Shown here in pieces: positions 30,437-64,000 of a stretch of 64,000 nt of DNA. Every line of letters begins with the position of its first letter. Position 1 is the first letter of the stretch. The stretch lies in IMG/VR virus record IMGVR_UViG_2541047860_000002; one strand, written 5' to 3'. Both the position numbers and the translations under genes were made by a program. The notes below the pieces were generated by a model. That model was not told where the DNA came from and searched no databases. It worked only from the letters and a program-made list of their open reading frames with translations. This stretch comes from a virus (taxonomy: Duplodnaviria; Heunggongvirae; Uroviricota; Caudoviricetes).

Positions 30437-30533
30437 AGTGATTGTGATGGTCGGTGCTGAACTCCGACACAGGGTTGTAGCAAGCCCCGCAAAGCGCGCA
30501 CTACTGTAGTTGCGGCACATCAGCCTGTGCATT

Positions 30534-30914: not shown

Positions 30915-30918
30915 AATT

Positions 30919-31005: not shown

Positions 31006-31010
31006 TAAAT

Positions 31011-31087
31011 TGGCGATGGTGGGTGGATTCGAACCACCGACCGACAGCTTAGAAGGCTGCTGCTCTATCCTACTGAGCTACACCATC
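31011..31087 (-). tRNA. tRNA-Arg (UCU)
   Basis: GATGGTG acceptor, GCTCAGTAGGATAGAGC D-arm, anticodon loop CTTCTAA, GGTTCGAATCC, CCA. Confidence 0.8.
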
Positions 31088-46743: not shown

Positions 46744-48426
46744 TTAATTGCTCATCACAAATTTTGCAAAGTTTATTAACTGTTCTGGCGTCCAGTTTTC
46801 CGGATCGTCACCGGACGACAACGGCGCGGATTCGTACATACCATGCTCGTTGTTTTGCTCTGATTCATTCGCCTTAAACTCTTTGATCATGGTGTTGAGA
46901 GTGTCATCGTCGATGTGCAACTGCTCAGTGAACAGATAACGCATAAACGCGTCACTACCAGCCAGTTTCGGGTTGTTCTGGATCTGGTCCATAATTTGGG
47001 AGATGACAGCAACAAAGTTGGCGCGTGCATCCAGTTCTCGGTTTTCCTCTTCCTGGATAGCAGTGTTCATTGAGTTGAATTGCACGTCATAAGGGCGGTT
47101 TGTTTCGGTGTAAACCTTGCCGTATTTATAAGCGAGGTGAATGTCCAGAAGCCGATAAATAGTTCGCTGGGCGGCCTGTCTGATCCAGTTCGCACGCAAT
47201 GCAGCCTGGATAGCAGTTTGCTGCCAGCCGCCTTCTCCAAGCCCTCCGCTCATCTGATCAGCCCAGCCAAGCATTGTTGCGTCAATGCCGAGGCTTGCAG
47301 CAAGCTGCCGGAGGTGAAACATAACGTCTTCGATACCACTGATATCTGCGGGTATGGATTGCGTATCAATGGTGATGCCGTTCTTCCCGTCTCCCATAAC
47401 AGGTATCAGATGGTTAAGCACAGTCGGAATAGCGTTGGCATTAATCGACCTTTGCGCCACCAGGTCACTATGACGCTTCAATGCCTGGCTGACGCCACGC
47501 GTATAGTTCGCCGCATTAACCGGGTCCAGTGTGTTCGTCGTAAGAGCAATCAGGCGGTCAATTTTGGCTGCATTATTTCGCGTTGATTTCAGCGCGGCGA
47601 GCGCAGCACATAAATTCAGGTAAGGTTCATAGCTGTATTCAAGGAATGAAGTTCCGTAATTCTGCGTCTCCATTAACGGCTTATCAGCCTGCTCACTTAA
47701 CAGTGAGTACCCTTTTGTGCCGTAGCTGACCGGAATAACTTTATGCTGCGGCGTCCAATAGGGATTTTTCATGGAAACCAGATTCCACGGTTCGGTTATT
47801 ACTCTGCGCAAACTATGCGTATCCAGGATGTAATCACCACTGAAACCTACCAGCTGGCTACCACGATAAAACTCCTGGACGAAGTGTGGCAGAGTGTAAT
47901 AACTGGACTCAATGCCTGTTATCCCCCTGCCCTGTTCAGCATAAGGGCGGACATAAGACACCCCAAAGATAGCCATAATCATGGCCCATGAAGGAAGTCC
48001 GTCATTAATCATCGCCCCCAAATCAGCGGTTAACTCTTCACATCTACTTACTGCCTCGGCATCGGAACCATCCTTTGGCGAAAGGATGAATGCTTGTCCG
48101 GTTTTTTTTGAAGGCGCAAGCGCATGTGCAATGTGAATGTTTAAAGCCGTCGAGATAGTCGGGCTTTTAGCCATCGTTTCCAGGATGTTGTACTTTTGCA
48201 GGCGCTCGCCGGGCAGTTCAGCGGATAAAGAAATTGAATCTGCTGCACTCGTCATGCCATCGCTATTGCTCCCCAGGATGCCTGGACGTAAAGCAGACAG
48301 GCCGGAACGAGCAACGACACTATGTCCGCTCGTAAAAACGACCGGATCGGCGGGCGTAACATCACCACCGTTGAAGGCTTTCTTCAATGCTGACAGAAAG
48401 CCTTTGTTTTTGTCTTTCGTTGCCAT
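46744..48426 (-). CDS. Putative portal / large head structural protein
   Basis: 560-aa ORF within virion-gene block; assignment by size/context. Confidence 0.4.
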   Translation of the reverse strand: MATKDKNKGFLSALKKAFNGGDVTPADPVVFTSGHSVVARSGLSALRPGILGSNSDGMTSAADSISLSAELPGERLQKYNILETMAKSPTISTALNIHIAHALAPSKKTGQAFILSPKDGSDAEAVSRCEELTADLGAMINDGLPSWAMIMAIFGVSYVRPYAEQGRGITGIESSYYTLPHFVQEFYRGSQLVGFSGDYILDTHSLRRVITEPWNLVSMKNPYWTPQHKVIPVSYGTKGYSLLSEQADKPLMETQNYGTSFLEYSYEPYLNLCAALAALKSTRNNAAKIDRLIALTTNTLDPVNAANYTRGVSQALKRHSDLVAQRSINANAIPTVLNHLIPVMGDGKNGITIDTQSIPADISGIEDVMFHLRQLAASLGIDATMLGWADQMSGGLGEGGWQQTAIQAALRANWIRQAAQRTIYRLLDIHLAYKYGKVYTETNRPYDVQFNSMNTAIQEEENRELDARANFVAVISQIMDQIQNNPKLAGSDAFMRYLFTEQLHIDDDTLNTMIKEFKANESEQNNEHGMYESAPLSSGDDPENWTPEQLINFAKFVMSN

Positions 48427-48490
48427 GAATCACCGCAAATTGTTTCCAGTTTTGCGGCAGCATAATCAGTATGTGATTTCAGCGGTTGGT

Positions 48491-49888
48491 TTAGTTTTCC
48501 GTACGGCAATTATTTAGAACTGTAGAATTTTCAAACATAGCAAAGTTCAGACCTTTCCCTTCGCCAAATTCACCCTCAATTTCATCAGATACAGCAGACA
48601 AAATACAACGCAGATCAACATCGCCACCGCCGAACATATCGCCCAATGCCTGTTGTTTATGAGTCAGCTCGTCGTTGATTTTTTGCGCCATTTTTTTGAA
48701 TGCTGCCCCCATACGCTTCGCACTGCGATTATTTGCTACGATGAATAGCGCCAATGCCTCAGCTTCCGGTGTACTGTCGCCGAATAACCCCCTTTGGGCG
48801 ATCACTTCTTCAACGGCCTGACCGTTGTCTTTGGCTTCACGTACAAGATTAATTGCTTCCTGGAGTGCTGCTATCGCCTGTGTATCCAGGCCATTAACCT
48901 GCTCTATACCGTCCACTAAGCCTGTTACTGCGTCATGGTGAGCGTCGCCAGACAGCGACTGCATTTGCGCAAAATCGCTGGCTGCCGTATTTAATGCGGT
49001 CAGGATATTACGCATTTCCGGATCTGGCTCTTCCGACACCAGCCGAACAAGCCTTTCATCCTTGTACGCTTTGGCAAAAATTGCATTCTGGATGCGATCG
49101 ATAAGCTGTTTCGTGGGACGCCCATCGGCAGTAAGCAAGCCTGCCGTCGCTGTATCGCCAATTTCGCACAAAAACGCACGAATAAACGCATCATTGGACC
49201 GCGCCAGCAGATTTCCATCATCTGAAGGATTAAATAGCGCCATGACGCTCTCAGTGAGAAATTGCGCATCCGCATACGCTTTTTCACTTGCTGCCATCTC
49301 TTGCAGATCGCTAATGTTTGAATCGCGGGCAAATTGAGCGCGGTCTACATCTGTGAGTCTTTCTCGCACCAGTACGGGCATAGACATTTGCGAAATTTCG
49401 TCAGGATTCAGACCAAACTCTTTCGCATGGTCGATCAGGTACTGGCGATACTCATCCGCCTGTCCTTGCTCATAGGCACGCCAGATACCCATACTCCTTC
49501 CGTTGCCGGATTCAACAACGTTGTCCGGACCAACTATCGGCGCTCCGTGGCTGCTCATACCGGAATCCGTTAATTGTGCCGGGCGTAAATTGGAGGCAAT
49601 ACGGTTAACCTGGAGTTTGCTGGATAGCCGGGTACGATCTCGTGGTTGGAGTTCTTCCGGGAAGGCCGGGTTAATCGTACCGTCAAGGTTGTTCGAAATG
49701 ATCAGACTGCTGGCATCAACGACCTTAAAAGCCGTCTTTACCTCTGCACCTTTGCTGGTGACTACGTAGCTACTTCGCCCCAAGCGTGTTTCTTTCCTCT
49801 CTAATGAAGAAACCAGAGCAATGACGCTGTTAATATCTGTGGCCCCGGAAAGCGCAGAAGTAACTGATTTGTTCAAAATACACTCCAA
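48491..49888 (-). CDS. Hypothetical virion-associated protein (Ddr-like position)
   Basis: 465-aa ORF downstream of DarA-like gene. Confidence 0.3.
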   Translation of the reverse strand: MECILNKSVTSALSGATDINSVIALVSSLERKETRLGRSSYVVTSKGAEVKTAFKVVDASSLIISNNLDGTINPAFPEELQPRDRTRLSSKLQVNRIASNLRPAQLTDSGMSSHGAPIVGPDNVVESGNGRSMGIWRAYEQGQADEYRQYLIDHAKEFGLNPDEISQMSMPVLVRERLTDVDRAQFARDSNISDLQEMAASEKAYADAQFLTESVMALFNPSDDGNLLARSNDAFIRAFLCEIGDTATAGLLTADGRPTKQLIDRIQNAIFAKAYKDERLVRLVSEEPDPEMRNILTALNTAASDFAQMQSLSGDAHHDAVTGLVDGIEQVNGLDTQAIAALQEAINLVREAKDNGQAVEEVIAQRGLFGDSTPEAEALALFIVANNRSAKRMGAAFKKMAQKINDELTHKQQALGDMFGGGDVDLRCILSAVSDEIEGEFGEGKGLNFAMFENSTVLNNCRTEN

Positions 49889-49944
49889 CTATAGAGAAAG
49901 CTGTGAGTGTAAAAAGTGTGTGATTTATGTGAGAACAGATAAGT

Positions 49945-49968
49945 AAAAGGGGCATTTCAGCCCCTTTT
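49945..49968. terminator. Bidirectional terminator-like hairpin (AAAAGGGG-catttcag-CCCCTTTT)
   Basis: Direct reading. Confidence 0.5.
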
Positions 49969-49970
49969 GA

Positions 49971-50339
49971 TTACCCGGCATAACCGTTAGCTTTCACCCA
50001 GCTTATGGTCTGCTCTTTAGCCTGCTCCAACGTAAGGAACTCGCCAACATAGTTTGAGATCCCACGCAGCGCATCAATAAATTCCATTTGTGTGGACTTT
50101 GTGAACACACCGCCCAGGAAGTCAGTCACTATCTTAGGGACTTCATCTACAACAGGATCAGCCTGTTGTTGCGGTTCCGCTGCCGGTTGCGCGGCAGTCC
50201 CCAGGCCCAATTTCAGCATCACATCAACAATCTGCTTACCAATGGTGACGCGTTGCAATACTGGCGCAGTTTTCTGCGCCTGCATTAGATCTGATAGCTC
50301 TTTACCTAATTTCAGGCGGTCTAAAACAGAGATGGTCAT
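49971..50339 (-). CDS. Small protein (DdrA-like position, ~13 kDa)
   Basis: 122-aa ORF overlapping stop/start with upstream gene. Confidence 0.3.
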   Translation of the reverse strand: MTISVLDRLKLGKELSDLMQAQKTAPVLQRVTIGKQIVDVMLKLGLGTAAQPAAEPQQQADPVVDEVPKIVTDFLGGVFTKSTQMEFIDALRGISNYVGEFLTLEQAKEQTISWVKANGYAG

Positions 50340-52282
50340 TAAACACCTCCCTGCTGAATTTCAGCCAGAATATTGATCAGGTAGTCAACTGCTGCACCCA
50401 CAGTGGCTTCGTTCTCGTCGTATCGACCTGCACTGATTAGAGCGTTTGCTGCTTCCTGCACATGATCAAGTTCAGCACTGATGACCGTCAGATCGCGGGA
50501 TGTAAACTGCTCCGGCACGGATTTCAGGTACTCCAGCGCTTTATCTGCTTCCTGATCAGCTTCACTTGCTGATTCACCCGCTTCTTCTGGCTCCGACTCC
50601 TGTTCTGGTGCTGGTTGTGGTTGTGGTTGTGGTTGTGGTTGTGATTCTGGCTCAACCACATGCTCTGTTTTTACTTCGCTTGAATGATTTTGAAGGGCGT
50701 TATACACGTCCATAATGAAAAGGTTCTCCCCATCACTAAGTGGATACGCCACGTTTGGAAACGCTTTGCGGAAAAGAATTTTCACTTGCGCCTTGAATGT
50801 TTTCAGGTCACTGCCAAACAGGTCCACATAGCCATCAATATGTTTCGACATGCTGGACGCAACCAATTGGCCTGCAAAATCTTTCAGCTCATCTTCATCA
50901 GGAAGATAAAGCAACTCGTACTGGCTGACTTCTTCATCTGTCAGTTTACGGTCATACGTAATGATACCGTGACGAGCATATTCGTAATACTGATCAGCCT
51001 GGTCAGGACGATCAAGCACGGCTTTATTTCCATCCGGAACAGCACCAACACCAGCTGGGCGAGATTGAAGTGCATAGTGGTATTTACCTACATCTTGGCT
51101 CTCTGGTTGTAATACTGGGTTCGTTTCGGGGTCTGTCTGTGGTGGCTCGGAGTCTTCCAACTGGCCTGGTAACACATCAACTTTATATTTATTTGCGTTA
51201 TGCTCTCGGTAGGCTTTAAGTAATTTGGTTGCAGCATCTGCCAAACTGCCTCCTTTGACAGCACTGGCATCAATACTGAATTTACCTTCAGGTGCTACTA
51301 TCGTAACGAAATTGTCACTGCCGGACGTGACATAATTAACTTCAGCGCCATTATCCAGCACTGTTTTTCCGTCAATGGCAAGATTATGTTTTACATGTCG
51401 CAGCTGGTCACTAAACGCTCGTTCTTTCGTTTTTTCACCTTTAGCAGACAACAATTTATCGCGTTTTGCTTGTAATTCCGCGTTGATGGCTTTCTGGGCA
51501 TCAAGTTTTTTTTGCATCTCCGTAAGAGCAGCACGCTTTTCAGTCAGCCCACGTTGCGCAACGTCCACCTGATCAATCATTATTGACCGTTCTTCTGCCA
51601 GTTTATCTGCTTCATTGAGATAACTCTCAATATCTGCCTTCATTTTGTCCTGGCGCTCTTTTGCTTTCTTAAATTTTTCGCTGTTACGCTCAATCAAATT
51701 AGATAGCGCCTGACATACTTGGCTTAAAGAAACATCTCTCCCACCAATCGGGGCGACAACGTGAGTTACGTTACGCTTATTAAGTAAAAACTGAAATGCA
51801 ACAAGCTCGTCGTTACTCTTTATTTTTGCCCCATCAGCTGTTGGAGAGTGGAAAATTATGCTTGTGCTCTGCCCGTCAGTAAGCGGTATCTGCGCGGTCA
51901 AAACAGGGATATTAGCTACCCGACGTACACGACCGATAATTGCACCACCAATACAATTACGTCCATTTTCATCGGTCCCAGCTTCATCAGTCCCTGCCAT
52001 AATATTCGTACCATTCAGGCCACGATTCAGCGCACGGACGAAAGCTCGCATTGTTTGAGCTAACCGAATTCTGGTTGTAGTTATGGACTCAAACATAGCT
52101 TCGTCAGACACAACCAGAATTTCATTGCCCATATAGGCAAGCTCAATATCTTCTAAGGTCGCCGCCTCAAAAATCAGGTCATCTTCGCTTAATTCTTCTG
52201 AAGACCAGCGACTTGGCATATAGCCGGGGATCGTATCAGCAAAAGTAGACTGAATATTAATTCGTAAAGGATTGTTAATCAT
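50339..52282 (-). CDS. Large coiled-coil protein with C-terminal PQ/acidic repeats (DarA-like by size and operon context)
   Basis: ~648 aa from ATG 52282 (GGAGG 6 nt upstream); follows holin-like genes as lydA-lydB-darA does in P1. Confidence 0.35.
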   Translation of the reverse strand: MINNPLRINIQSTFADTIPGYMPSRWSSEELSEDDLIFEAATLEDIELAYMGNEILVVSDEAMFESITTTRIRLAQTMRAFVRALNRGLNGTNIMAGTDEAGTDENGRNCIGGAIIGRVRRVANIPVLTAQIPLTDGQSTSIIFHSPTADGAKIKSNDELVAFQFLLNKRNVTHVVAPIGGRDVSLSQVCQALSNLIERNSEKFKKAKERQDKMKADIESYLNEADKLAEERSIMIDQVDVAQRGLTEKRAALTEMQKKLDAQKAINAELQAKRDKLLSAKGEKTKERAFSDQLRHVKHNLAIDGKTVLDNGAEVNYVTSGSDNFVTIVAPEGKFSIDASAVKGGSLADAATKLLKAYREHNANKYKVDVLPGQLEDSEPPQTDPETNPVLQPESQDVGKYHYALQSRPAGVGAVPDGNKAVLDRPDQADQYYEYARHGIITYDRKLTDEEVSQYELLYLPDEDELKDFAGQLVASSMSKHIDGYVDLFGSDLKTFKAQVKILFRKAFPNVAYPLSDGENLFIMDVYNALQNHSSEVKTEHVVEPESQPQPQPQPQPAPEQESEPEEAGESASEADQEADKALEYLKSVPEQFTSRDLTVISAELDHVQEAANALISAGRYDENEATVGAAVDYLINILAEIQQGGV

Positions 52283-52910
52283 GCTCATCCTCCAGGCGCG
52301 CGATTTCTTCTTTAAGAGCACGTGTCTTAGCTACTTCCTGAGACAAGGCAGCTTTAACGTTACCCGTATCTTGCATTACTTTGTCTGACTTGCTCTGGAG
52401 TTTAGACAGTTTGTCGTTAGCATTAGCGATATCTTCACGGAGTGCATCACGTGATTCTTTCGCTTCAGCTAATTTCTGAGCGTTAGATTTAACTCCCTGC
52501 CGCTTCTTATTTCCGTCATCAATATTTTTTGCTGCACGAGCAAGTTTTCGAGCTAATGACTTCTGGAAAGAAGTTGCTCCGCGATTAAATAAAGCCGCAA
52601 GAGATTGCCCCAAAGCCGACATTGTTTTTACTGGCTTGAACGGTACTGTTTTACCATTCAGTTTGATCCCAGATATATCACCGGTATCGTTAACCTGAAC
52701 TTCCATTGTCTGTTCATCAATACCAATAAGAGTAAACGTGCGCGTCATGATCCCATCTTTCTTCCTGCCATTACTTACAGGGATCACCCTCGCTATCTTG
52801 TAACCACCTTTGCTGATTTCTTTGACGAGTTTTGCCAGCCCCTTTTCGTTTAATTCAGCATAATTAAGAAGAACATAATTATTCTTATTTGACATCCCAG
52901 TCTCCTTCAC
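52275..52910 (-). CDS. Hypothetical K/A-rich coiled-coil protein
   Basis: 211-aa ORF. Confidence 0.35.
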   Translation of the reverse strand: MKETGMSNKNNYVLLNYAELNEKGLAKLVKEISKGGYKIARVIPVSNGRKKDGIMTRTFTLIGIDEQTMEVQVNDTGDISGIKLNGKTVPFKPVKTMSALGQSLAALFNRGATSFQKSLARKLARAAKNIDDGNKKRQGVKSNAQKLAEAKESRDALREDIANANDKLSKLQSKSDKVMQDTGNVKAALSQEVAKTRALKEEIARLEDEHD

Positions 52911-53331
52911 GCTTTTCGATCGTAAACTGGCGCTCTATGCAGTCATTGATAGGGAAAATGCGATAAAGCGGATTCAGTCGGCAGTTACCGTTAGTCAATG
53001 TGACTTTCAGATCCCACTTCGTTGGCTCAAGATATTTCGTATCGATGAGCAAATACTCTTCTCTCTCACCGCGTTTTGAGGCGTCAACTGGTCGCGTTTT
53101 CCCTGAAATAACCACAGATGGATTTTTCAGGTCTTGCAACCAATATTCGATTTGAGCATTGCTGACCCAGCTTCGCTTAACACGTAGCGAAACAGGAAAT
53201 GCTATAGCGGATTCTTTCACTACAGCGTCACCAATACTCAAAATCTCAACACTCTTGCGACGAAAAATGAAACGGTCAATGATGGCAACAAATGCCATGA
53301 TAAAAATGAAATAATTTCCAAAGTTACCCAT
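52885..53331 (-). CDS. Membrane-anchored protein (LydB-like position)
   Basis: N-terminal TM helix; 148 aa. Confidence 0.35.
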   Translation of the reverse strand: MGNFGNYFIFIMAFVAIIDRFIFRRKSVEILSIGDAVVKESAIAFPVSLRVKRSWVSNAQIEYWLQDLKNPSVVISGKTRPVDASKRGEREEYLLIDTKYLEPTKWDLKVTLTNGNCRLNPLYRIFPINDCIERQFTIEKREGDWDVK

Positions 53332-53657
53332 TATTTCTCTCCACCTTTTCCCCCATTCGCTATTACGCTTAAGAGATTCAAGACGTTACTAGCTCTGGAC
53401 TTCAAGCCCTGTAAAATTTCACTACCGTTGTTACTGGCAATCAGAACAACGCAGAAAATGATACCTTCAGGCCATTCTTGGCTAACCGCCACCCCATACC
53501 CCGCAAGCCCGGCTGTTACCGCAGTAAACAATTCACTCGCAAGATTGAGCAGGGACGCAGAAATGCGCCCGTCTCTAACTCCGAGAAGGAATACGCCGGT
53601 TCCACTTAGTAGGGATGTTATGACTACTACAGCCAGATTTTCATAATCTGCAAACAT
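53331..53657 (-). CDS. Holin-like small membrane protein (LydA-like position)
   Basis: 108 aa with 2-3 hydrophobic helices and charged C-terminus; first gene of operon. Confidence 0.45.
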   Translation of the reverse strand: MFADYENLAVVVITSLLSGTGVFLLGVRDGRISASLLNLASELFTAVTAGLAGYGVAVSQEWPEGIIFCVVLIASNNGSEILQGLKSRASNVLNLLSVIANGGKGGEK

Positions 53658-53763
53658 ACCCCTCCAGAAATAACATCTAATGCGCCACTAACTTAGTCAG
53701 TTTGTTATTTCCTTACAGGACATCTTCTAAAATCTCCCCCCTTAACATACAAGGGGGGGACAT

Positions 53764-54324
53764 ATGCTTATTGGATACATTCGCGTATCAACTAATGACC
53801 AAAACACCGCTTTACAACGAAACGCCCTTGAAAGCGCAGGATGTGAGCTAATTTTTGAGGATAAGGCGAGCGGCAAAAAGGCTGAACGCCCAGGGTTAAA
53901 AAAGGTTCTCCGTATGCTTTCCAGAGGTGACACCCTAGTCGTATGGAAGTTAGATCGTCTTGGGCGCAGCATGCGTCACTTAGTTGTGCTGGTGGAAGAG
54001 CTGCGTGACAGAGGCATTAACTTCCGGAGTCTCACTGACTCCATCGACACCAGTACACCAATGGGGCGCTTTTTCTTTCACGTAATGGGGGCGCTGGCAG
54101 AAATGGAACGTGAGCTTATCGTTGAACGTACACGCGCTGGACTTGATGCAGCTCGCGCAGAAGGTCGTATAGGTGGGCGTCGGCCTAAATACCAAGAAGA
54201 AACATGGCAGCAAATGCGGCGATTGCTCGAGAAGGGCATCCCCCGTAAGCAGGTTGCAATCATCTATGATGTGGCTGTTTCCACGCTTTATAAGAAGTTT
54301 CCGGCGTCATCATTTCAATCCTAA
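53764..54324 (+). CDS. cin: Serine recombinase DNA invertase (Cin/Gin/Hin family), copy 1
   Basis: MLIGYIRVSTNDQNTALQ...; catalytic Ser region and C-terminal HTH. Confidence 0.9.
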   Translation: MLIGYIRVSTNDQNTALQRNALESAGCELIFEDKASGKKAERPGLKKVLRMLSRGDTLVVWKLDRLGRSMRHLVVLVEELRDRGINFRSLTDSIDTSTPMGRFFFHVMGALAEMERELIVERTRAGLDAARAEGRIGGRRPKYQEETWQQMRRLLEKGIPRKQVAIIYDVAVSTLYKKFPASSFQS

Positions 54325-54341
54325 ACCTTGGTTTAAGAGAA
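54316..54341. other. gix/cix-like crossover site CAATCCTAAACC-TT-GGTTTAAGAGAA (left)
   Basis: AAACC-NN-GGTTT core overlapping invertase-1 stop codon. Confidence 0.6.
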
Positions 54342-54371
54342 CTCGGTACCAGTGGTGAAAAGATCCCCCTG

Positions 54372-55907
54372 TTGAGCACGGCTAACACATGGAGTGCGCG
54401 CCAGACTTTCAACGGCGGGATCACCGGGGCGCTGACAGGGAACGCCGATACCGCGACGAAATTGAAAACAGCCAGAAACATTAATGGCGTCAGGTTCGAT
54501 GGTTCGGCTGACATTAATATCAATACTCTGGTATCACGCGGTCGAGTAACTGCTCTGGCGTCGAATGCGCAGGGGACATCCGGGATTCAGCTGTATGAGG
54601 CATACAACAATGGCTACCCTTCCCCCTATGGCAATGTGCTTCACCTTAAAGGTGCCACCGCTGCTGGCGAAGGTGAGTTATTCATTGGCTGGAGTGGCAC
54701 GAGCGGTGACCATGCGCCCGTACATATCCGTTCGCGGCGGGATACTGATTCTGCCAACTGGTCTGAATGGGCGCAGGTCTATACGTCAAAAGATTCCGTT
54801 CCCGGCGTTAATACCAAAGGGAATCAGGACACCTCTGGTAATGCGGCTACAGCGACCAAATTGCAGACAGCACGTACTATTAACGGTGTCTCGTTTGATG
54901 GTTCTAAAAACATTGAGCTAACAGCGGAAGATTTAAATCTTGAGCAAACCGTAGAATTAGCCGCTGGATCATTGCAGAAAAACCAGAACGGCGCAGATAT
55001 TCCAAACAAAGATAAATTTACGCAAACAATAGGTGCTTGCCGCTCTTTTCATGGTGCTATTAGCACAGGTGCAGGAAACTGGACGACGGCACAATTGATT
55101 GAATGGCTGGATTCTCAAGGGGCATTCAATCACCCATACTGGATGTGCAAATGTTCATGGTCATACGGCAATAATAAAATTATTACCGATACTGGCTGTG
55201 GAACTATTCATCTTGCAGGTTGCGTTATTGAGGTTATGGGTAATAAAGGTGCCATGACTATCCGTGTAACCACCCCGAGCACTTCCAGAGGTGGCGGAAC
55301 TACTAATGCACAATTTACTTATATAAACCATGGCGCAGATTACGCACCAGGCTGGCGGCGTGACTACAGTACCAAAAATCAGCAGCCTGCATTTGCTTTA
55401 GGGCAGACAGGAAGCACTGTTGGAAATGACAAAGCTGTTGGATGGAACTCAATTAGTGGCGTTTATAATGCGACTATTGGTGGAGCATCAACATTGATTC
55501 TTCACTTTAATATGAATGCGGGGAGTTGCCCTGCTGTACAGTTCCGTGTGAATTACAGGAACGGTGGTATTTTTTATCGTTCAGCGCGTGATGGTTACGG
55601 ATTCGAAGCTGACTGGTCAGAATTTTACACCACAACACGCAAGCCATCAGCAGGAGATGTTGGTGCATATACCAAAGCGGAGGCGGACTCCCGTTATGTA
55701 CGTGATATCCGACTTGGTGGCGCATCATCATACAAACCAGCAAATAATGGCACAACATGGACACATCAGGCTCCATCTGGTTGCGCATATACCGGAATAA
55801 TTGTTCAGGATACAGGCTCAAACTCTGCCGATAATATTGGTGGTGTTTATTACAGACCAATTCAAAAAAATATTAATGGCACATGGTATAACGTATCGAG
55901 TATTTGA
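54372..55907 (+). CDS. Tail-fibre cassette (middle repeats + variable C-terminus), no ATG start
   Basis: Two tail-fibre repeats GNA.TATKL.TAR.INGV.FDGS; frame open from 54294 without ATG. Confidence 0.65.
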   Translation: MSTANTWSARQTFNGGITGALTGNADTATKLKTARNINGVRFDGSADININTLVSRGRVTALASNAQGTSGIQLYEAYNNGYPSPYGNVLHLKGATAAGEGELFIGWSGTSGDHAPVHIRSRRDTDSANWSEWAQVYTSKDSVPGVNTKGNQDTSGNAATATKLQTARTINGVSFDGSKNIELTAEDLNLEQTVELAAGSLQKNQNGADIPNKDKFTQTIGACRSFHGAISTGAGNWTTAQLIEWLDSQGAFNHPYWMCKCSWSYGNNKIITDTGCGTIHLAGCVIEVMGNKGAMTIRVTTPSTSRGGGTTNAQFTYINHGADYAPGWRRDYSTKNQQPAFALGQTGSTVGNDKAVGWNSISGVYNATIGGASTLILHFNMNAGSCPAVQFRVNYRNGGIFYRSARDGYGFEADWSEFYTTTRKPSAGDVGAYTKAEADSRYVRDIRLGGASSYKPANNGTTWTHQAPSGCAYTGIIVQDTGSNSADNIGGVYYRPIQKNINGTWYNVSSI

Positions 55908-56443
55908 TTATGATGCATTTAAAAAACATAAAGCCAGGCAATCCAAAAACCGAAGAGCAATATCTTTTAACTAAAAACTCAGGCGTCGTCTGGTTATGGA
56001 CCGAAGATGGTAAGAACTGGTATGAGGAACAAAAGAACTTTCAGGAAGACACCATAAAGATTGCATATGATGAAAATAATGTTATATGCGACGTGCAAAA
56101 GGATGTGACTGCAATTTGCCCGGAGGGAAAAAGTGTCGTTGAGGTTCCTGATATTACAGCAAATCGCCGGGCTGATATTTCGGGTAAATGGATGTTCAAA
56201 GATGGCGTAGTGATAAAGCGAACTTATACCGAGGAAGAGCAGAGGCAACAAGCGGAAAATGAAAAGCAAAGCCTGCTACAGCTCGTCAGGGATAAAACAC
56301 AGCTATGGGACTCACAGTTACGGCTGGGTATCATTTCCGACGAGAATAAACAAAAATTAACCGAGTGGATGCTCTATGCGCAGAAGGTCGAATCCACAGA
56401 CACCTCCAGCCTGCCAGTAACATTTCCCGAACAACCAGAATGA
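55904..56443 (+). CDS. Tail-fibre assembly chaperone (U-type)
   Basis: 179 aa; paralog on opposite strand; follows fibre cassette. Confidence 0.75.
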   Translation: MIMMHLKNIKPGNPKTEEQYLLTKNSGVVWLWTEDGKNWYEEQKNFQEDTIKIAYDENNVICDVQKDVTAICPEGKSVVEVPDITANRRADISGKWMFKDGVVIKRTYTEEEQRQQAENEKQSLLQLVRDKTQLWDSQLRLGIISDENKQKLTEWMLYAQKVESTDTSSLPVTFPEQPE

Positions 56444-56471
56444 GAGAAGGCCCGATATCGGGCCTTAATTT

Positions 56472-56999
56472 TTATTCAGGCTTTTGTGGCCATTCAGGAT
56501 TTGCCGTATCCACACGGCTGACCAGAACACTGTAGCGTTCCCATGACTCCAGTCGTGCGCGTTCCTCATCCGTCGCCATATTCAGCCTGACAGCGCGTTC
56601 CAGTGGCTGAATAACGCTTTCTGCTTCGGAAAGTAACGCGGCCTTTTGTGATTCGGCCTGTTGTTGCTGTTCATCTGCCGTATAAATCCGTTTAACCACA
56701 GCTCCGTCCTTAAACATCCACTTCCCTGAATCATCGGCACGACGATTGGCTGTTATGTCGGGAACCTCAACGACGCTAAAACCTTCAGGGTTAAGCGTGG
56801 AGGCATCTTTGGTGATGGCGACAATAATATTATTTTCATCGTAAACAATCTTTATGGTGTCTGGCTGAAAGTTTTTCACTTCCTCATACCAGTTTTTTTC
56901 GTCCTCAGAGTAAAGCCAGATGACTCCGTGCTTCTTTGTTAACTCATACTGATCCAGTGTTTTAGCATTACCCGCTTTTATGTTCTTTAAGTGCATCAT
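56472..56999 (-). CDS. Tail-fibre assembly chaperone (U'-type)
   Basis: 175 aa; ~60% identical to ORF 55904-56443. Confidence 0.75.
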
Positions 57000-57000
57000 A

Positions 57001-58011
57001 TTAAACGCTCGCTACATTATACCAGGTGCCATTTATATACTTTTGAACGGGTCTGTAATAAACGCCCGCTATATTATCGGCAGAGTTGGACCCTGTATCC
57101 TGAACATTAATACCAGACAATACATGACCTGACGGGCACTGGAAATTCCATGTTTGCCAGTTGTTTACTCCATAATATTGCTGTGAACCAAGTCGAACAT
57201 CTTTCACATAACGGGAATCAAAGTTACCGTAATCCGAGGGATTAACACGCCCTGTAATATTTATGGTTTTATTACTTTGAATGCTGCCGGAGACAAAGCG
57301 CATAACATGGACGTTATTAGCATAAACGTCCAGATTACCGTCGCCATTTTGTTTAAAGCCCGTGTCATTATCACCCAAAACAATCGAGTTACCGCCAAGA
57401 GCACTGGATGTTCCGATACCCAATGCACCATTCAATTGACCGCCAGATAATGACAACGCCCCAACCTCAGCAGCAGTCGGTTTAATGTGCGAACTGTAAA
57501 TTACATATACAGTTCCATCTGTCAGGCCTGTTGGTTTATTCGCTGTATAAGTTGGTGATGTATGAATTTGTACAGTTGCATCCTTTGTATAATCCCACTG
57601 GATATTAACACCTGTGGCGTAATTACCTATTTTTACATAAATGTCATAGGTATCACCGGATGTATTCACCCATGCAAAATTAGTAAATCCAACCGAGGTC
57701 CGTCGCCATAATGCACCAGTAAGACCTTTTGGATTTCCATTTCCCGCACGAAGAACAAGTTCAGATATACCAGCCTGCATAGGGGAGTTAACATTATATC
57801 CAGCACCACCAATCAGACTTATGTAAACCACGGAACTGGCTTGTGGCATTGTTACAGTTGCCAGTTTGAACCATCCAGCACCACCACTAAAAGACATGGT
57901 TGTTGAATTTGTTGTGCCGATATTACGCAGGAATAGTTTTTTATCGGGAATATCTGCGCCGTTCTGGTTTTTCTGTAATGCGCCAGAAGCCTGATTTACC
58001 GTTTCCTGCAA
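57001..58011 (-). CDS. Alternative tail-fibre variable cassette (Sv'-type), no ATG start
   Basis: Shares ...[11 protein letters not shown]... junction with the plus-strand cassette; TAA stop 3 codons upstream inside the crossover site. Confidence 0.65.
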
Positions 58012-58028
58012 ACCGAGGTTTTAGATAA
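58003..58028. other. gix-like crossover site TTCCTGCAAACC-GA-GGTTTTAGATAA (right)
   Basis: 24/26 identical to the Mu gixL sequence as recalled. Confidence 0.75.
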
Positions 58029-58082
58029 TGGCCGTTTCTGACCTGCATGGCATGATTTACGCTTTTGGACGGGAGATTCAGC

Positions 58083-58670
58083 GTGCTGATTGGCTATGTA
58101 AGGGTATCAACAAATGACCAGAATACAGACCTGCAACGAAACGCTCTTGTTTGTGCAGGATGTGAACAAATATTTGAAGATAAATTAAGCGGGACAAAGA
58201 CAGACCGACCGGGATTAAAACGCGCTTTAAAGCGCCTTCAAAAAGGTGACACGCTGGTTGTCTGGAAACTGGATCGCCTCGGGCGAAGCATGAAACATCT
58301 GATTTCTCTCGTCGGGGAACTACGGGAGCGAGGGATTAATTTTCGCAGTCTGACCGACAGCATAGATACATCTTCTCCAATGGGACGTTTTTTCTTCCAC
58401 GTGATGGGTGCCCTGGCTGAAATGGAACGTGAATTAATTGTTGAACGTACACTGGCCGGACTGGCAGCAGCGCGCGCACGGGGGCGCACAGGCGGACGTC
58501 GCCCGAAGCTGACAAAAGAACAGCATGAGCAAATAGCAAGGCTGATTAAAAACGGTCACGACAGAAAACAACTGGCAATAATTTACGGCATTGGTACATC
58601 GACGATTTATCGTTACCACCCCGCAGGAGAATCAAGCGGAACAATAGAGAAGAGTCAGAAAACAAAATAA
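58083..58670 (+). CDS. Serine recombinase DNA invertase (Cin/Gin/Hin family), copy 2
   Basis: (M)LIGYVRVSTNDQNTDLQ...; GTG start 58083 with GGGAG upstream. Confidence 0.9.
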   Translation: MLIGYVRVSTNDQNTDLQRNALVCAGCEQIFEDKLSGTKTDRPGLKRALKRLQKGDTLVVWKLDRLGRSMKHLISLVGELRERGINFRSLTDSIDTSSPMGRFFFHVMGALAEMERELIVERTLAGLAAARARGRTGGRRPKLTKEQHEQIARLIKNGHDRKQLAIIYGIGTSTIYRYHPAGESSGTIEKSQKTK

Positions 58671-58700
58671 CCGCTAATCTGACCATTAGCGGTTTTTGTG
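58670..58700. terminator. Bidirectional terminator (ACCGCTAAT-ctgacc-ATTAGCGGT + T5)
   Basis: Direct reading between invertase 2 and tail gene U. Confidence 0.55.
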
Positions 58701-58705
58701 TTAAA

Positions 58706-59200
58706 TCAGAACAGCCCTTTAACTGAACTGGCCGCGCTGTTAAGAGATGATGTCACCTTATCTTTGAAGCCGGACAGCATATCGCTGAACGATGAGGATT
58801 GCAGGCGCTCCCGCAAATCCTCATCACAGCGTTCAAGGGTCAGTGAAAATTCTATCTTTTTCGCCTTACCGTAGCGATCAAACTCGGAACGGGTCGTATT
58901 CGTTCCGGTCAGGACATACATGCCGTAAATCTGCCCGACGCCATCAATCAAAGGCCAGGGTCGTCCTGTATACGCCTGCGTGGTCAGCAGCGACAGCGAC
59001 ACTTCGCCACCTGTAATTTCAGGATAAAGCACACCAGAAAGAACGATGCGATCATCACCTGCACCGATATACTGCCAGCTTGCTGAACGGTTAACGCGTT
59101 CATTTTTCACATGCCGCCAGCTTTTGTTTTGCTGTAACTGCTGATGCGGCAGCGTGCGCAGCTCAAAAACAAACATGCCGTAGATCATCATCATGGCCAT
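58706..59200 (-). CDS. Tail protein (P2 gpU-like position)
   Basis: 164 aa immediately downstream of tape measure. Confidence 0.5.
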   Translation of the reverse strand: MAMMMIYGMFVFELRTLPHQQLQQNKSWRHVKNERVNRSASWQYIGAGDDRIVLSGVLYPEITGGEVSLSLLTTQAYTGRPWPLIDGVGQIYGMYVLTGTNTTRSEFDRYGKAKKIEFSLTLERCDEDLRERLQSSSFSDMLSGFKDKVTSSLNSAASSVKGLF

Positions 59201-59206
59201 GACTCC

Positions 59207-62014
59207 TCAATCTTTATCGTAAAAACTGCCACGCCCGGCACGGGCGCGCCGTTCCATTTCTGCCCTGACCATTTCACCGACCAGTTTCGCCAGTTCGCGG
59301 GGATTCTGTGTAACAACGTTATGCAGATGAACATGAATTTCACCGCCAAATCCGGAGGCAACAGGCTCCCGGTTACGGGAAGTTGCAGGAACTGATGCCA
59401 CTGGCGATCGTATGGCCTCCGCCACCGGGCGGGAGCTGGCCGCAACAACAGGGACCAGCGCCGGAGGCAGCGGAGCCGGAACCACGGGTGTGATATTAAT
59501 TGCGGGGGCAGGCTTACTGACCTGCGCAATCTTCCGCTCCTGCCACTCCCCACGAACAGCAAGTGCGCGGGGCAGGTTCTTAAAGACAATATCGCCGGGG
59601 CCAATGCGTTTTTTCGTCTCATCAACCAGCTTACCTGTGTTATCAGCAATTTTGCTGAGTCTGCGTAGCGTCCCGGTATTGCTGTCTGTGAGCGGTTTGT
59701 TGTCTTTGGGTTTATCACCTCCGGTGCCATTGCCATTTTCCACAGGCTTCGGCGGATTGATTTTCGCCAGGTCCCCCTGAAGCAAGGCAACCTTGTCCTG
59801 AAGAATGGCCGCACGCTGTGCGTCTTCGATTTTCTTGCGCGCCCTTTCCGCTTCATCCGGAAGGACGCCAAGTTTTTCAAGTATCCACGCCAGCGTATCC
59901 AGTAGCATTTTTGCAGGTGTCAGAACAAGTTGTAACGCACCGCCAAGAACGTTACCGAATATCTCGCCAGCACTGGTACATTTATCCAGAGTTTCCTTGC
60001 TGGATTCCATCGGTGACAGCAGCGATTTAAACCAGTTAAACACCTGGCTGATCCCGCTTCCGATTGCGTCAAAAACAGGACCAAACCGTTCAAAGGTTTC
60101 GCGCAACGGGGTCAGCCTTTCCATAATCCCGCTGAACACCCCGGCAAAAAATGCCCTGATGGGATCCCAGTATTTCCAGATAAGAACGGCAGCTCCGGCA
60201 AGCGCAGCCACGATAAGACCAACCGGACTGAACAACGCCCCGATGGCGCCTCCCAGTAAAGAAACGGAACCCGTCACCATTCCCCACAGCGCAGGCAACG
60301 CCCTGACGACATTCATTGACCGGGTAAGAATGTCAAAACCAAGACGCAGGGTGGCCAGCTTCCCGTAAAGCACCCCAATAACCAGCGACAACGAGCCAAT
60401 CGTTGCAGTCATTGCCAACAACGCACCGCCTGCTATCAGTAGCTGGCGCGTCAGTACCGGATGGGCCTGCGCCAGCGAGGTGATTTTTTCAAGCACCCGC
60501 GTGAGCCACTGCGTGACAGAACGCAGCGGACCGTCAACCAGATCACTGATGCGAATACGAAGACCTTCCCATGCGCTGTCGAGATTTTTCAGGTCCCCAT
60601 CAAGATTATCGGCCATTACTTTTGCAACGCGATCGGACTCTCCCCTTGCCCCCTGCAATTCTCTGGTCAGTTTTTGCAGCTCTCCTGAACCAGCCGCCGC
60701 AACAAGCGTCTGCAAACCAACGAACGCCTCTTCTCCGGCGATGTCCTTGAAGAAGGAAACCTGGTCCACCTGTCCGTATTTTTGTGTCGCCTTATAGAGA
60801 TCAAGCAGCACATCCTCCATCGGGCGCATTTTGCCTCTGGCGTCAGCAACTGACACCCCCAGCTCTTTCAGTGCATCAGCCGCAGCTTTTGGCGGTGATG
60901 CAAGGCGGGACAGACTTGCGCGCATGGCCGTACCAGCATCGCTTCCACGAAGACCATTATTGGCAAGCATCCCGGCCATAGCTGCCGCTTCTTCAAGACT
61001 GATACCAAGTTTTGCGGCAACCGGACCGGTATACTTCATGGTTTCGCCCAGCGCGCGTAAATCAGTATTGGTCCGGGTGAATGCCGCTGTCAGCGTATCG
61101 CCAACCCGGTCCATTTGATCGGCTGTCAGGTTGAACTGTGTGAGGATATTGGAGCCTATATCAGCCGTCTCGCCGAGTTCGACGCCACCTGCCAGCGCCA
61201 TATTAAGAACACCGGGCAATGCGGCCTGAATGGCCTGCGGAGTAAAACCAGCCATTGCCAGAAAGCTCTGCCCACTGGCGGCATCACTCGCAGTAAACTG
61301 TGTTTCAGAGCCAAGTTTTAACGCCTGCTCACGCAGCGCCTTAAACTGCGGGCTGTTTTTGTCGATTCGCGTCAGCGCCTGAACGCGGGACATCTCTTTG
61401 CCGAACCCGATCGCGGGCTGCAAAAAACGCCCGGCAGCATAGCCGCCCGCCGCTGCCGCACCAATTGCCAGCGCACCACCTGTTTTCAGTTTTCCCGCGG
61501 TTTCCTGCGCGCGCGAATACCGCTCACGCGCCCGCGTTACACGCGCAAGCGCCTGCCGTTCGCGTTCAAGCTGGTTGTTGTACTGTTCGGTGCGTCTGAT
61601 GGCCTGCTGGATGGTGTTATCGCTGCCTGTCAGGGAAATGCCGTGGCGTTTCAGTTCTCCGCCAATCTCCCGCATTTTCTGAATTTCCCGTGTGCGCGAT
61701 TCATTCAGGCGTTCAAGCCGGGTGCTTAACTGCTGCATCAGCTTTTGTTGTTTTTCGCTGAGCACTGTACCCGTGCGTTGTAACTGATTAAGGGCGTTAA
61801 GCTGGCGTCGTGCTTTCACGATGCCCGCATCCGCTTTACTGACAGCGTCACGGGCGCGCTCAAATGAACGCGCCTGACGCTCGAGATTTTTGATCGCCCC
61901 CTGCGTTCGCTGGATGGAGTCACCAAACTGCCCCATCAGGCGGCGGGCGTTTTCGGCAGGCCGGGTCAGCCTGTCAACGGCGCTGAAAGCGACCCGGATA
62001 TCAAGAGTCTTCAT
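59207..62014 (-). CDS. Tail tape-measure protein
   Basis: 935 aa, coiled-coil N-terminus, Gly/Ala-rich hydrophobic middle; follows E/E' frameshift pair. Confidence 0.85.
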   Translation of the reverse strand: MKTLDIRVAFSAVDRLTRPAENARRLMGQFGDSIQRTQGAIKNLERQARSFERARDAVSKADAGIVKARRQLNALNQLQRTGTVLSEKQQKLMQQLSTRLERLNESRTREIQKMREIGGELKRHGISLTGSDNTIQQAIRRTEQYNNQLERERQALARVTRARERYSRAQETAGKLKTGGALAIGAAAAGGYAAGRFLQPAIGFGKEMSRVQALTRIDKNSPQFKALREQALKLGSETQFTASDAASGQSFLAMAGFTPQAIQAALPGVLNMALAGGVELGETADIGSNILTQFNLTADQMDRVGDTLTAAFTRTNTDLRALGETMKYTGPVAAKLGISLEEAAAMAGMLANNGLRGSDAGTAMRASLSRLASPPKAAADALKELGVSVADARGKMRPMEDVLLDLYKATQKYGQVDQVSFFKDIAGEEAFVGLQTLVAAAGSGELQKLTRELQGARGESDRVAKVMADNLDGDLKNLDSAWEGLRIRISDLVDGPLRSVTQWLTRVLEKITSLAQAHPVLTRQLLIAGGALLAMTATIGSLSLVIGVLYGKLATLRLGFDILTRSMNVVRALPALWGMVTGSVSLLGGAIGALFSPVGLIVAALAGAAVLIWKYWDPIRAFFAGVFSGIMERLTPLRETFERFGPVFDAIGSGISQVFNWFKSLLSPMESSKETLDKCTSAGEIFGNVLGGALQLVLTPAKMLLDTLAWILEKLGVLPDEAERARKKIEDAQRAAILQDKVALLQGDLAKINPPKPVENGNGTGGDKPKDNKPLTDSNTGTLRRLSKIADNTGKLVDETKKRIGPGDIVFKNLPRALAVRGEWQERKIAQVSKPAPAINITPVVPAPLPPALVPVVAASSRPVAEAIRSPVASVPATSRNREPVASGFGGEIHVHLHNVVTQNPRELAKLVGEMVRAEMERRARAGRGSFYDKD

Positions 62015-62269
62015 TATCTACATTCCCGCTGCGAAGTGCCGCCCGCTCACGCCAGCTAACCACTTCGCCGGGCGTCATCATGAAGATTTCGGCGGGCGAC
62101 CAGTTAAAAATGGCGGCGATATCTGCCACCAGATCTTCGATGTGCTCAAAGCACACCAGGGTGATTACGCTGCCGTCTCCTGCACGCTCTTCGCGCCAGA
62201 GTCTGGCTCGCTCATAAAATTTACAGCCACAGCGCACAACTGAATAAAATCGCGTGACGACATTTTTTT
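62001..62269 (-). CDS. E' extension of tail assembly chaperone, reached by programmed -1 frameshift on A7 (62263-62269)
   Basis: -1 frame open from 62267 to 62001 overlapping the 3' end of E; slippery AAAAAAA in IKKM codons. Confidence 0.5.
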
Positions 62270-62539
62270 AATCATCACTTCATCCAGTCGTGGCGAGGTC
62301 ACGCGAGGCAACAGCGTGAACATGGTATCCGCTTTCAGATTCAGCACATCAGACAGCGACAGACCACGCAGGGATCCAGCCTGTTCAATAGCCCCGGTGA
62401 TCTCCACATACGTGATTTTTTCGCCACCACGCTCAATTGGTCGGGTCAGTTTTACGCCACGTTCGACAGCCATATCCTCACCTGCCGTCACATCATCCGC
62501 CACGGTGTTATTCCGGGTTTCAGTATCGATGTCTTTCAT
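62165..62539 (-). CDS. Tail assembly chaperone (P2 gpE-like)
   Basis: 124 aa between tube and tape measure with overlapping -1 frame. Confidence 0.6.
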   Translation of the reverse strand: MKDIDTETRNNTVADDVTAGEDMAVERGVKLTRPIERGGEKITYVEITGAIEQAGSLRGLSLSDVLNLKADTMFTLLPRVTSPRLDEVMIKKMSSRDFIQLCAVAVNFMSEPDSGAKSVQETAA

Positions 62540-62594
62540 CAGTTGTCTCCTTTTCAGTCAGAGGCGACGCACTGCGCCGCCTGCATATTACTTA

Positions 62595-63107
62595 TCAGCC
62601 AAGCCCGAGCGCGGAACGGATGCGATCGGGCACAATGTCCTTGCCGTCCTTCCGGTAAATGAAGTTCAGCAGGTCAATCTCCCACAACGGGCGATCGTTA
62701 ACACTCAGCTTGTAGTAGGTGTTTTTAATGGCGTAAGTGTGTGATGTGGCTTCGCCCTGTTTGGCTTCCCCCATATCAATTTCCGTCACACGTCCGCGCA
62801 TTTCGACTTCATACAGGTCGCTTTCTGCATCGGTGTAGTATTCACCCGCAAAACGCAGCAGCGTGCCGTCAATCGTGCCGCCATACTTAAGGAACAGCTC
62901 ACGAACTGCGCCCCCCATGACAAAGCTCGCATCAAGCGCGGAGTCGTCCAGACCGAGATCAATACTTACCGCACCCATCATGCCACCACCCCGGTAGCTG
63001 TCGGTTTTGCGCGTCAGCTTAGGCAGAGTGACGGACGTCACCTTACCCACTTCGTTTTCACCATCCACAAACAGCGTAAAAAAGCGAAGATGTTTTGGTA
63101 CAGCCAT
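62595..63107 (-). CDS. Tail tube protein (P2 FII-like position)
   Basis: 170 aa between sheath and E. Confidence 0.55.
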   Translation of the reverse strand: MAVPKHLRFFTLFVDGENEVGKVTSVTLPKLTRKTDSYRGGGMMGAVSIDLGLDDSALDASFVMGGAVRELFLKYGGTIDGTLLRFAGEYYTDAESDLYEVEMRGRVTEIDMGEAKQGEATSHTYAIKNTYYKLSVNDRPLWEIDLLNFIYRKDGKDIVPDRIRSALGLG

Positions 63108-64000
63108 CAGGCACCTCCCAGCACCGCAAATGCGGGACCAAAGAATTCATCAGTAAACGACTGGTAAAGCTCCATGTCTTCCAGCGGGGGAACAGGCGTA
63201 TATTTGTAGCGAATACGCACGCGCCCCTGACGTAAATTCGTGGTGCCGTTATCCACCACGTCATACCAGCACGACGCCCCAATCAGTTTCCCGGCAGTAA
63301 CCAGTGAATCCAGTTTTGCCCTGATGGCACTGATAACATCTTTCACGTTCGCAGGCGTCAGTGGACTGTCGATGGTTTCAAACTGCGCTTCCGCAATTGA
63401 ATCAGCCAGCACCTGTGCGGTTCGGGTATACACCTCAAAGATGTAGGCGTTCGTTTCCGGTGTGCGGTTGCCCCAGAAGCGGAACCCATTGCGACGAATA
63501 ATGGTCGTGATTTCTTTGTTGTTGAGGCTGTTGGCATCGCTGTCTTCGGCCTGCAACGACCAGAACACATGCCTCGACATCCCCAGCACATTTTTAACCG
63601 GAACGTTGGACAGTGATTTGTGCCAGCCCTGCTCATGGTCAATGTACGCACGAAGGCCGCACGCATAGGCAGGCGCGGGGAACGTTTCGTTTTTGCCACT
63701 TTTCGGGTTGTAGGCAATGAAGTCCGGCCATAAGAGCATCACCTCACGTTCGTTGAATTTCTGGCGGTAGGTAATCGCCTCAGCCATCGTGTTACAGCCG
63801 TAACATGAGGCATACACAAACGCGCGCAGTTTACCTGCAATCACGCACAGGGATTTTGTTACAGCCTCCGTGTCCAGCTCCGGCGCGGCCAGAATACGCG
63901 GACGGTATCCGATGCTTTCATCCTGCTCTGCAACAAGCAGCGCATACATCCCCGTATAGCTGCCGTCAGATTCAGAGCCACCGATAACCAGTTGATCCTG
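63107..64000 (-). CDS. Tail sheath protein, 5' end beyond window
   Basis: Frame open to window edge; precedes tube gene. Confidence 0.55.
   Translation of the reverse strand, partial: QDQLVIGGSESDGSYTGMYALLVAEQDESIGYRPRILAAPELDTEAVTKSLCVIAGKLRAFVYASCYGCNTMAEAITYRQKFNEREVMLLWPDFIAYNPKSGKNETFPAPAYACGLRAYIDHEQGWHKSLSNVPVKNVLGMSRHVFWSLQAEDSDANSLNNKEITTIIRRNGFRFWGNRTPETNAYIFEVYTRTAQVLADSIAEAQFETIDSPLTPANVKDVISAIRAKLDSLVTAGKLIGASCWYDVVDNGTTNLRQGRVRIRYKYTPVPPLEDMELYQSFTDEFFGPAFAVLGGA

Follow-up and report, generated by a model that had tools for sequence, protein, structure and literature searches.

Fibre cassettes between two invertase genes: a probable assembly chimera of a P1-like plasmid and a P2-like prophage

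How does an invertible tail-fibre segment come to lie between two DNA invertase genes, with no constant fibre part on either side? The question is raised by a 64,000-nt stretch of the tailed-phage record IMGVR_UViG_2541047860_000002 (Caudoviricetes), here called the window, which corresponds to positions 32001-96000 of scaffold KE701072.1 (99,257 bp) in the draft assembly GCA_000459435.1. Between crossover sites at 54316-54341 and 58003-58028, two opposed fibre cassettes that lack an ATG (A, Sv-type; B, Sv'-type) enclose the convergent genes of two tail-fibre assembly chaperones, U and U'. A P1-type cin gene flanks the segment on the left and a Gin-like invertase gene (invertase 2) on the right, both on the plus strand. 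An earlier note, made from the sequence alone, had described this layout; sequence comparison confirms its two gix-like sites, the second of them 24/26 identical to Mu gix, and the list of open reading frames (ORFs) together with Caudo_TAP domain matches bears out the opposed cassettes with their chaperones and an invertase gene on each side in direct orientation. Our answer is that the locus is very probably not one element. We read it as a chimeric contig in which an assembler fused the host-range switch of a P1-like plasmid-prophage to that of a P2-like prophage at the tRNA-Leu gene leuZ.

Two parental halves

DNA searches divide the locus between two sources. Matches to P1-like plasmids and phages (holin, cin, C segment) extend up to ~57920, and matches to chromosomal P2-like/Mu-like prophages (segment, invertase, tail protein) start at ~54945. 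No record covering at least 80% of the locus was found among complete E. coli genomes, phages and plasmids. On the left, window 1104-55678 is colinear with the complete 89.7-kb P1-like plasmid pEP91B-2, which served as the reference for this backbone; P1 itself matches it only patchily. The backbone at 47000-53750 is 95-99.8% identical to ~90-kb E. coli plasmids, and all of its 106 places in 100 complete E. coli genomes are on plasmids (0/106 chromosomal). We assign the window up to ~56185 to a P1-like plasmid-prophage of a divergent P1-like group. Extrapolating from pEP91B-2, the 32 kb of scaffold that precede the window would reach to about cixR. The S constant part of this element would accordingly be found some 32 kb before window position 1, at the opposite scaffold end, and the scaffold would consist of a whole P1-like genome linearised at its C segment plus ~11 kb of P2-like right arm.

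The DNA from 57947 onward is assigned to the right arm of a prophage from a common P2-like family. The canonical order in such prophages is W-J-I-H-[segment]-invertase, followed on the opposite strand by gpU-T-E-FII-FI and then by D and ogr. Past the sheath gene, the scaffold of the window continues with gpD, ogr, hok and the prophage end, and its right end falls inside tRNA-Leu (leuZ), at the prophage att repeat. The two invertases follow the same division. The exact Cin protein occurs on many contigs with its usual P1-like neighbours (darA-hdf-lydB-lydA-cin), and the exact invertase-2 protein stands in the canonical P2-like gene order in 10/10 chromosomal contexts shown. The P1 arrangement has cin upstream of cixL, pointing into the segment, and the S constant part on the far side; in Mu and P2-like phages the invertase lies downstream of the proximal site and reads away, again with the constant part on the far side. 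Both orientations are found here, cin reading toward the segment, with its stop codon in the outer half of cixL, and invertase 2 reading away from it.

Compared with the P1 C segment and Cin, the left side shares the direction of cin, an identical cixL that overlaps the cin stop codon, a stretch 68/72 identical to the annotated P1 enhancer, a 0.6-kb leader, an Sv-type cassette and U. Besides an invertase of the Cin/Gin/Hin/Pin group beside the segment, which is present, a P1-type switch has two inverted cix sites with a TT/AA core, an S constant part abutting one of them, whose C-terminus is exchanged by inversion, 0.6-kb inverted repeats at both ends and a Fis-dependent enhancer in the 5' part of the invertase gene, to which the 68/72 stretch in cin would correspond. 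Unlike P1, the window has cixL without cixR, one 0.6-kb arm without the second and no S constant part, and the right end of the segment is a gix-type sequence. The right side resembles the Mu G segment and Gin as they occur in E. coli P2-like prophages, in its Sv'-type cassette, its gix site and a Gin-like invertase downstream of that proximal site and reading away; past the invertase, gpU-T-E-FII-FI lie on the opposite strand, as in P2-like relatives. The window differs from these systems in having neither an H constant part nor a gixL, that is, a second gix site (GA/TC core) fused to H or S. Both are found on another scaffold of the same assembly, as is evidence for the segment in both orientations (below). 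Multiple-inversion systems (p15B Min; the three-repeat P2-like locus of enteropathogenic E. coli, EPEC), with several fibre cassettes and more than two crossover sites, offer a further likeness, but they combine one invertase with at least three compatible sites, whereas the window has two sites with unmatched cores. A single element would have both flanks from one replicon and recur in complete genomes; here a plasmid-only backbone meets a leuZ prophage.

These flanks bear on the suggestion of the earlier note that the cassettes are silent and that the functional fibre gene lies upstream of the sheath gene, as in P2. The locus would then be a genuine element, a native store of silent cassettes serving a full-length fibre gene elsewhere, which agrees with the absence of a start codon and of a constant part from both cassettes in the window. 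What lies past the sheath is gpD, ogr, hok and the prophage end, with no fibre gene, and H abuts the segment, in all relatives and on the chromosome scaffold, just where P1 DNA sits here. The flanks, moreover, come from two unrelated replicon types, and we regard a native silent store as scarcely credible.

The prophage copy on the chromosome scaffold

The same assembly contains KE701069.1, a 3.37-Mb chromosome scaffold that carries a complete P2-like prophage of canonical order at leuZ. Its left part reads W-J-I-H-gixL-[3,240 N]-B(C-term)-U'-U-A*-gixR-invertase, where A* is the prophage counterpart of cassette A, and its right part gpU-T-E-FII-FI-D-ogr-hok, followed by tRNA-Leu, tRNA-Cys, tRNA-Gly, pgsA and uvrC. 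The gixL after H reads TTATCGAATACC TC GGTTTACAGGAA. The fibre gene that the earlier note proposed to seek outside the window is H, on the far side of the segment; its statement that no constant part is present holds for the 64-kb window, and a constant part is present on KE701069.1.

The last 9,311 bp of KE701072.1 (window 57947 to the scaffold end) match KE701069.1 with one mismatch (99.989% identity). This sole difference, at window 58009, is a C in the window and a T on KE701069.1, and lies in the inner half-site, which travels with the segment. Position 58009 is C where the B end adjoins the site and T where the A* end does, and KE701069.1 mixes both states around its 3,240-N gap (L053 6000-6178 and 11930-12060; L062). 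From 56186 to 57581 the window covers the 3' end of U, the whole of U' and the C-terminal portion of B; this stretch matches the KE701069.1 segment, read in reverse complement, at 100% identity. Leftward from 56186, the first differences from the chromosomal copy appear at 56185, 56170 and 56146, and cassette A is only ~80% identical to A*. The gix-type sequence that begins at 57976 is missing from P1-like C segments. The passage from P1-like to P2-like DNA is bracketed by these limits; the part of this zone right of 57581 corresponds to the N gap of KE701069.1. Only this comparison with the chromosome scaffold placed the junction. Sliding identity, run against 30 relatives that comprised P1 and P1-like plasmids, P2-like prophages, Mu and a 48-kb plasmid, did not, as the 3-kb core is a fine mosaic; none of the 30 is at least 99% identical across the whole core.

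On KE701069.1 the start of the A* cassette adjoins both gixL, before the N gap, and gixR, which implies that the contigs of this scaffold derive from two inversion states. Both orientations of the segment are therefore represented in the assembly, as A*-gixR and H-gixL-A* on KE701069.1 and as B-gixR in the window. The inversion heterogeneity that the earlier note proposed to look for exists, as two isomers of the P2-like prophage segment, which by these adjacencies was inverting in the sequenced culture. Experiments have documented such inversion in EPEC P2-like prophages (PMC4272514). An independently assembled Logan contig, SRR784825_237 (9,154 bp), is identical to both scaffolds; one of its ends is precisely window 58010, next to the polymorphic base 58009, and the other lies at the att repeat. 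The breaks at the prophage end are 94 bp apart in the leuZ region of KE701069.1, that of the Logan contig at L062 4852 and that of KE701072.1 at L062 4758. This spacing suggests an att repeat of ~94 bp, spanning the 3' 55 nt of tRNA-Leu and ~40 nt beyond.

Could the scaffold instead be a real circular plasmid of ~99 kb, a hybrid phage-plasmid in which the fibre and tail end of a P1-like element has been replaced by a P2-like right arm? Its 99,257 bp would fit the size range of P1-like plasmids. Its P2-like part, however, stops exactly at the att repeat in tRNA-Leu, is a base-for-base copy of the chromosome and lacks the baseplate and fibre genes, so that it would not work as a tail module. Neither PLSDB nor the complete genomes contain such a hybrid, and we consider this origin very improbable.

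How the halves came to be joined

Four things are observed: the identity of each half, the duplicated right arm, the identity with the flipped prophage isomer and the polymorphic half-site base. Together they point to the assembler, and not to recombination in the cell, as the probable source of the join. The strain would then carry two separate canonical host-range switches. The first, on the P1-like plasmid-prophage, would run cin-cixL-0.6-kb leader-cassette A-U and onward, with cixR and the S constant part outside the window. The second, in the leuZ P2-like prophage, would run H(constant)-gixL-[B, U', U*, A*]-gixR-Gin-like invertase-gpU, T, E, FII, FI, D, ogr. Flipping of the prophage segment in culture would yield reads for both isomers, and the two segments would share an identical stretch somewhere in the 3' end of U, U' or B. 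The assembler could then have passed from the P1-like C segment through the shared stretch into the flipped prophage isomer (U'-B-gixR-invertase) and on into the right arm, halting at the next graph branch, the att repeat in tRNA-Leu; the right arm would thus have been written twice. Long identical stretches between such segments are plausible, because the exact U and U' proteins recur across P1-like, P2-like, Mu-like and 48-kb plasmid contexts.

An assembler's join would also account for the architecture. Two invertases would stand in direct orientation because each parent brings its own, in its native position. No constant part would be present, and both cassettes would occupy the silent slot, because the constant part of each parent lies on the opposite, missing side. 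The presence of a single 0.6-kb leader would follow as well. The features that had made the locus look unusual (invertase position, an in-frame TAA and a 29-bp inverted repeat) are in fact ordinary in the parental families. The search for hybrids covered phages, the plasmids of PLSDB and 5,426 complete E. coli genomes; the locus was the first query, an 11-kb stretch reaching into both flanks the second. The 11-kb query found no hybrid spanning both flanks in the 5,426 genomes, the best coverage being 62%, and the hybrid locus was likewise absent from the phage and PLSDB plasmid searches.

Several points weigh against this explanation. The contig crosses the join region unbroken (the window has 0 N bases). 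The identical stretch shared by the parental segments is our supposition, the far end of the P1-like segment (U'/B-0.6 kb-cixR-S) lying outside the window. H is joined to the rest of the KE701069.1 segment only by scaffolding across the 3,240-N gap, and SRR784825 only appears to derive from the strain of GCA_000459435.1. The case is built on assembled sequence, which does not directly disprove a real join. Finally, a study of complete genomes has described P1-like elements integrated beside resident prophages, without settling the cause (PMC10879196).

Some of these points would favour a real cointegrate, in which RecA-dependent homologous recombination within shared U/U'/B sequence had inserted the P1-like plasmid into the leuZ P2-like prophage. 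The window would then show the right-hand junction, with an orphan segment whose cassettes are both silent; at the reciprocal junction, a single segment would be faced by two constant parts. Besides the continuous contig without N, the parental sites are intact on both sides, which places the crossover inside the segment, as homologous recombination would; the scaffold seems to hold one whole P1-like genome linearised at its C segment; and identical chaperone modules are common to these phage families. The few chromosomal P1-like elements flanked by prophage genes, as yet unexplained, would fit as well (PMC10879196). Set against this, the right arm, A*-gixR-invertase and H-gixL-A* all stand in canonical chromosomal context in the same assembly, and the B-gixR adjacency is that of the ordinary flipped prophage isomer, for which P1 is not needed. 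The assembler would have to use the right arm twice in this case too, and neither the 5,426 complete genomes (no hybrid) nor the 106 backbone places (none chromosomal) provide a precedent. We judge a cointegrate unlikely. If it were real, the junction would be locked by its mismatched cores (TT vs TC), and the event would explain in concrete terms how P1-like elements come to lie beside prophages in chromosomes (PMC10879196) and would illustrate a route of phage-plasmids into chromosomes.

We thus retain the assembler's join. The earlier note had offered, as one of two readings, a remnant of recombination between a P1-type segment and a P2-type tail module; it was right about both parents, and the join itself is most likely the assembler's. 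It had itself named misassembly as a refuting outcome, which is essentially what the evidence now shows. In all likelihood the locus is not a new kind of element, both halves being well-known host-range switches, and its biological weight is small, the assembler being the best explanation of the odd layout. The more general lesson is that invertible tail-fibre segments of co-resident phages that share cassettes are a trap for short-read assemblies, and that the resulting plasmid-chromosome chimeras can mimic novel elements or integrated phage-plasmids.

Crossover sites, cassettes and relatives

Coordinates of the features are collected in Table 1. A scan of the 64 kb with WAACCNNGGTTT returned exactly the two crossover sites, where 0.26 matches are expected by chance, and no third site in the window. 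A pseudo-gix site at 54922-54947, inside the segment, was rejected, as only 10/26 bases match by eye. The gix-type site is identical to that of the P2-like relative L002. The two cores are unlike, TT at cixL and TC at the gix-type site when read in inverted alignment, so efficient inversion of the segment as written is not expected. Cin is reportedly able to recombine at mismatched cores at low frequency, with local conversion (Iida and Hiestand-Nauer). For Hin, a change of one core base blocks ligation in the inverted orientation (PMC4817059). A site-specific origin of the join by Cin or Gin was considered and rejected, as both window sites are parental in their outer and inner halves.

The in-frame TAA to which the earlier note drew attention is real (58023-58021, minus strand), but it lies within the outer half-site GGTTTTAGATAA, which never enters a fibre frame. 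This half-site, TAA included, is identical in 6/6 P2-like relatives examined, whose H-proximal site reads TTATCGAATACC. A silencing mutation was therefore rejected, the codon being native to the P2-like family.

Table 1 Features of the locus and of the adjoining right arm (window coordinates)
Feature	Position	Strand	Description
cin	53764-54324	+	P1-type serine DNA invertase, 186 aa; Resolvase and HTH_7 domains; 184/186 aa identical to P1 Cin
Enhancer counterpart in cin (putative)	53782-53853		68/72 identical to recombinational enhancer annotated inside P1 cin (NC_005856 31678-31749)
cixL	54316-54341		CAATCCTAAACC TT GGTTTAAGAGAA; core TT 54328-54329; identical to annotated P1 cixL and to same site in P1-like plasmids
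0.6-kb leader	54342-54974	+	P1-specific leader of variable fibre part; 97-100% identical to P1-like relatives; absent from P2-like relatives
Cassette A	54372-55907	+	Sv-type C-terminal fibre part, no ATG, 511 aa; ORF list; Pfam gp37_C match
Cassette-start motif, left copy	54975-55003		29 bp; perfect inverted repeat with 57947-57975
U	55910-56443	+	U-type tail-fibre assembly chaperone, 177 aa; Caudo_TAP domain
Join zone P1-like/P2-like	56186-57975		Left limit, last chromosomal difference (56185); right limit, first gix-type sequence (57976)
Hairpin	56447-56466		GC-rich, terminator-like, between convergent chaperone genes; consensus scan only
U'	56472-56999	-	U'-type chaperone, 175 aa; Caudo_TAP domain
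Cassette B	57001-58011	-	Sv'-type C-terminal fibre part, no ATG, 336 aa; ORF list; frame comparison
Cassette-start motif, right copy	57947-57975		29 bp; perfect inverted repeat with 54975-55003
P2-like right arm	57947-64000		gix site, invertase 2, then tail genes; present twice in assembly
gix-type site	58003-58028		Invertase-proximal; TTCCTGCAAACC GA GGTTTTAGATAA; core GA 58015-58016; 24/26 identical to Mu gixR/gixL
Invertase 2	58083-58670	+	Gin-like serine invertase, 195 aa, GTG start; Resolvase and HTH_7; 158/194 aa identical to Mu Gin
gpU	58706-59200	-	P2-like right arm
Tape measure (T)	59207-62014	-	P2-like right arm
124-aa ORF	62165-62539	-	P2-like right arm
Tube (FII)	62595-63107	-	Start of sheath gene (FI) then reaches window end

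The frame of cassette A is open from the cix core (…GLRELGTSGEKI…). Cassette B is open from the gix core (GLQETVNQ…), in a frame that agrees with that of the P2-like H gene, and over its C-terminal part it shows 100% identity with the cassette of the chromosomal prophage. Exact copies of the 511-aa and 336-aa ORFs occur on one record only, KE701072.1. The 0.6-kb leader matches both ends of the P1 C segment, where it forms an inverted repeat, and is present once in the window. The 29-bp inverted repeat reported in the earlier note is perfect, and its left arm stands; the right arm lies at 57947-57975, one base off the 57948-57976 given there. The motif opens every cassette compared in P1-like, P2-like and 48-kb plasmid relatives and encodes an 11-residue stretch. 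The ORF enclosing invertase 2 runs from 58065 to 58670; the GTG at 58083, the start called on the source scaffold and on 10 chromosomal relatives, is most likely the true start. Nucleotides 19-90 of this gene, which align with the P1 enhancer, are 72/72 identical to Mu gin.

Mu-like, P1-like and 48-kb phage-plasmid contexts all contain the exact U protein; the exact U' protein is on KE701069.1 as well as in P2-like and P1-like contexts elsewhere. Taken together, the exact U and U' proteins (window 55910-56999) recur across Mu-like and P2-like prophages, P1-like plasmids and 48-kb phage-plasmids. The U/U' modules travel unchanged between unrelated phage backbones, and identical modules of chaperones and cassettes circulate among P1-like, P2-like, Mu-like and 48-kb phage-plasmid genomes. 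The latter are a third type of element, a plasmid of about 48-50 kb (L026 = NZ_CP062206.1; L047, L051) with an IncFII-type RepA, an invertase of its own and a P2-like baseplate and fibre module. The 48-kb plasmid NZ_CP062206.1 has the closest whole 3-kb segment, 95.5% identical from gix to gix.

Elsewhere in the P1-like part, window 28812-31087 holds five minus-strand tRNA genes (Met-CAT, Ser-TGA, Thr-TGT, Tyr-GTA, Arg-TCT), where P1 has three. Near residue 570 of its 660-aa ORF, the DarA homologue (window 50339-52321) has an acidic stretch with a short PQ-repeat (PQPQPQPQPQ); the length differs between relatives (639-649 aa).

Two contigs from other assemblies carry P1-like cin regions in new surroundings. 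On a 216-kb contig of GCA_053865625.1 (L003 10553-11183), a P1-like cin and outer cixL half are joined exactly at the TT core to another inner half, GGTTTTCAAGAA, followed by a truncated cassette start and then iroBCDEN. The contig looks like a large cointegrate plasmid in which either a genuine site-specific rearrangement of the Cin type has taken place or another set of cassettes is present. A 4.69-Mb, chromosome-sized contig of GCA_033843625.1 (L004 11440-11620) carries P1-like darA...cin, cixL, the 0.6-kb leader and ~280 bp of cassette. The P1-like region ends there, beside ybfG-potE-speF-kdp, at what we take, by eye, to be an IS1 terminal sequence; it would be an IS1-associated integration or a remnant, unrelated to the invertible segment.

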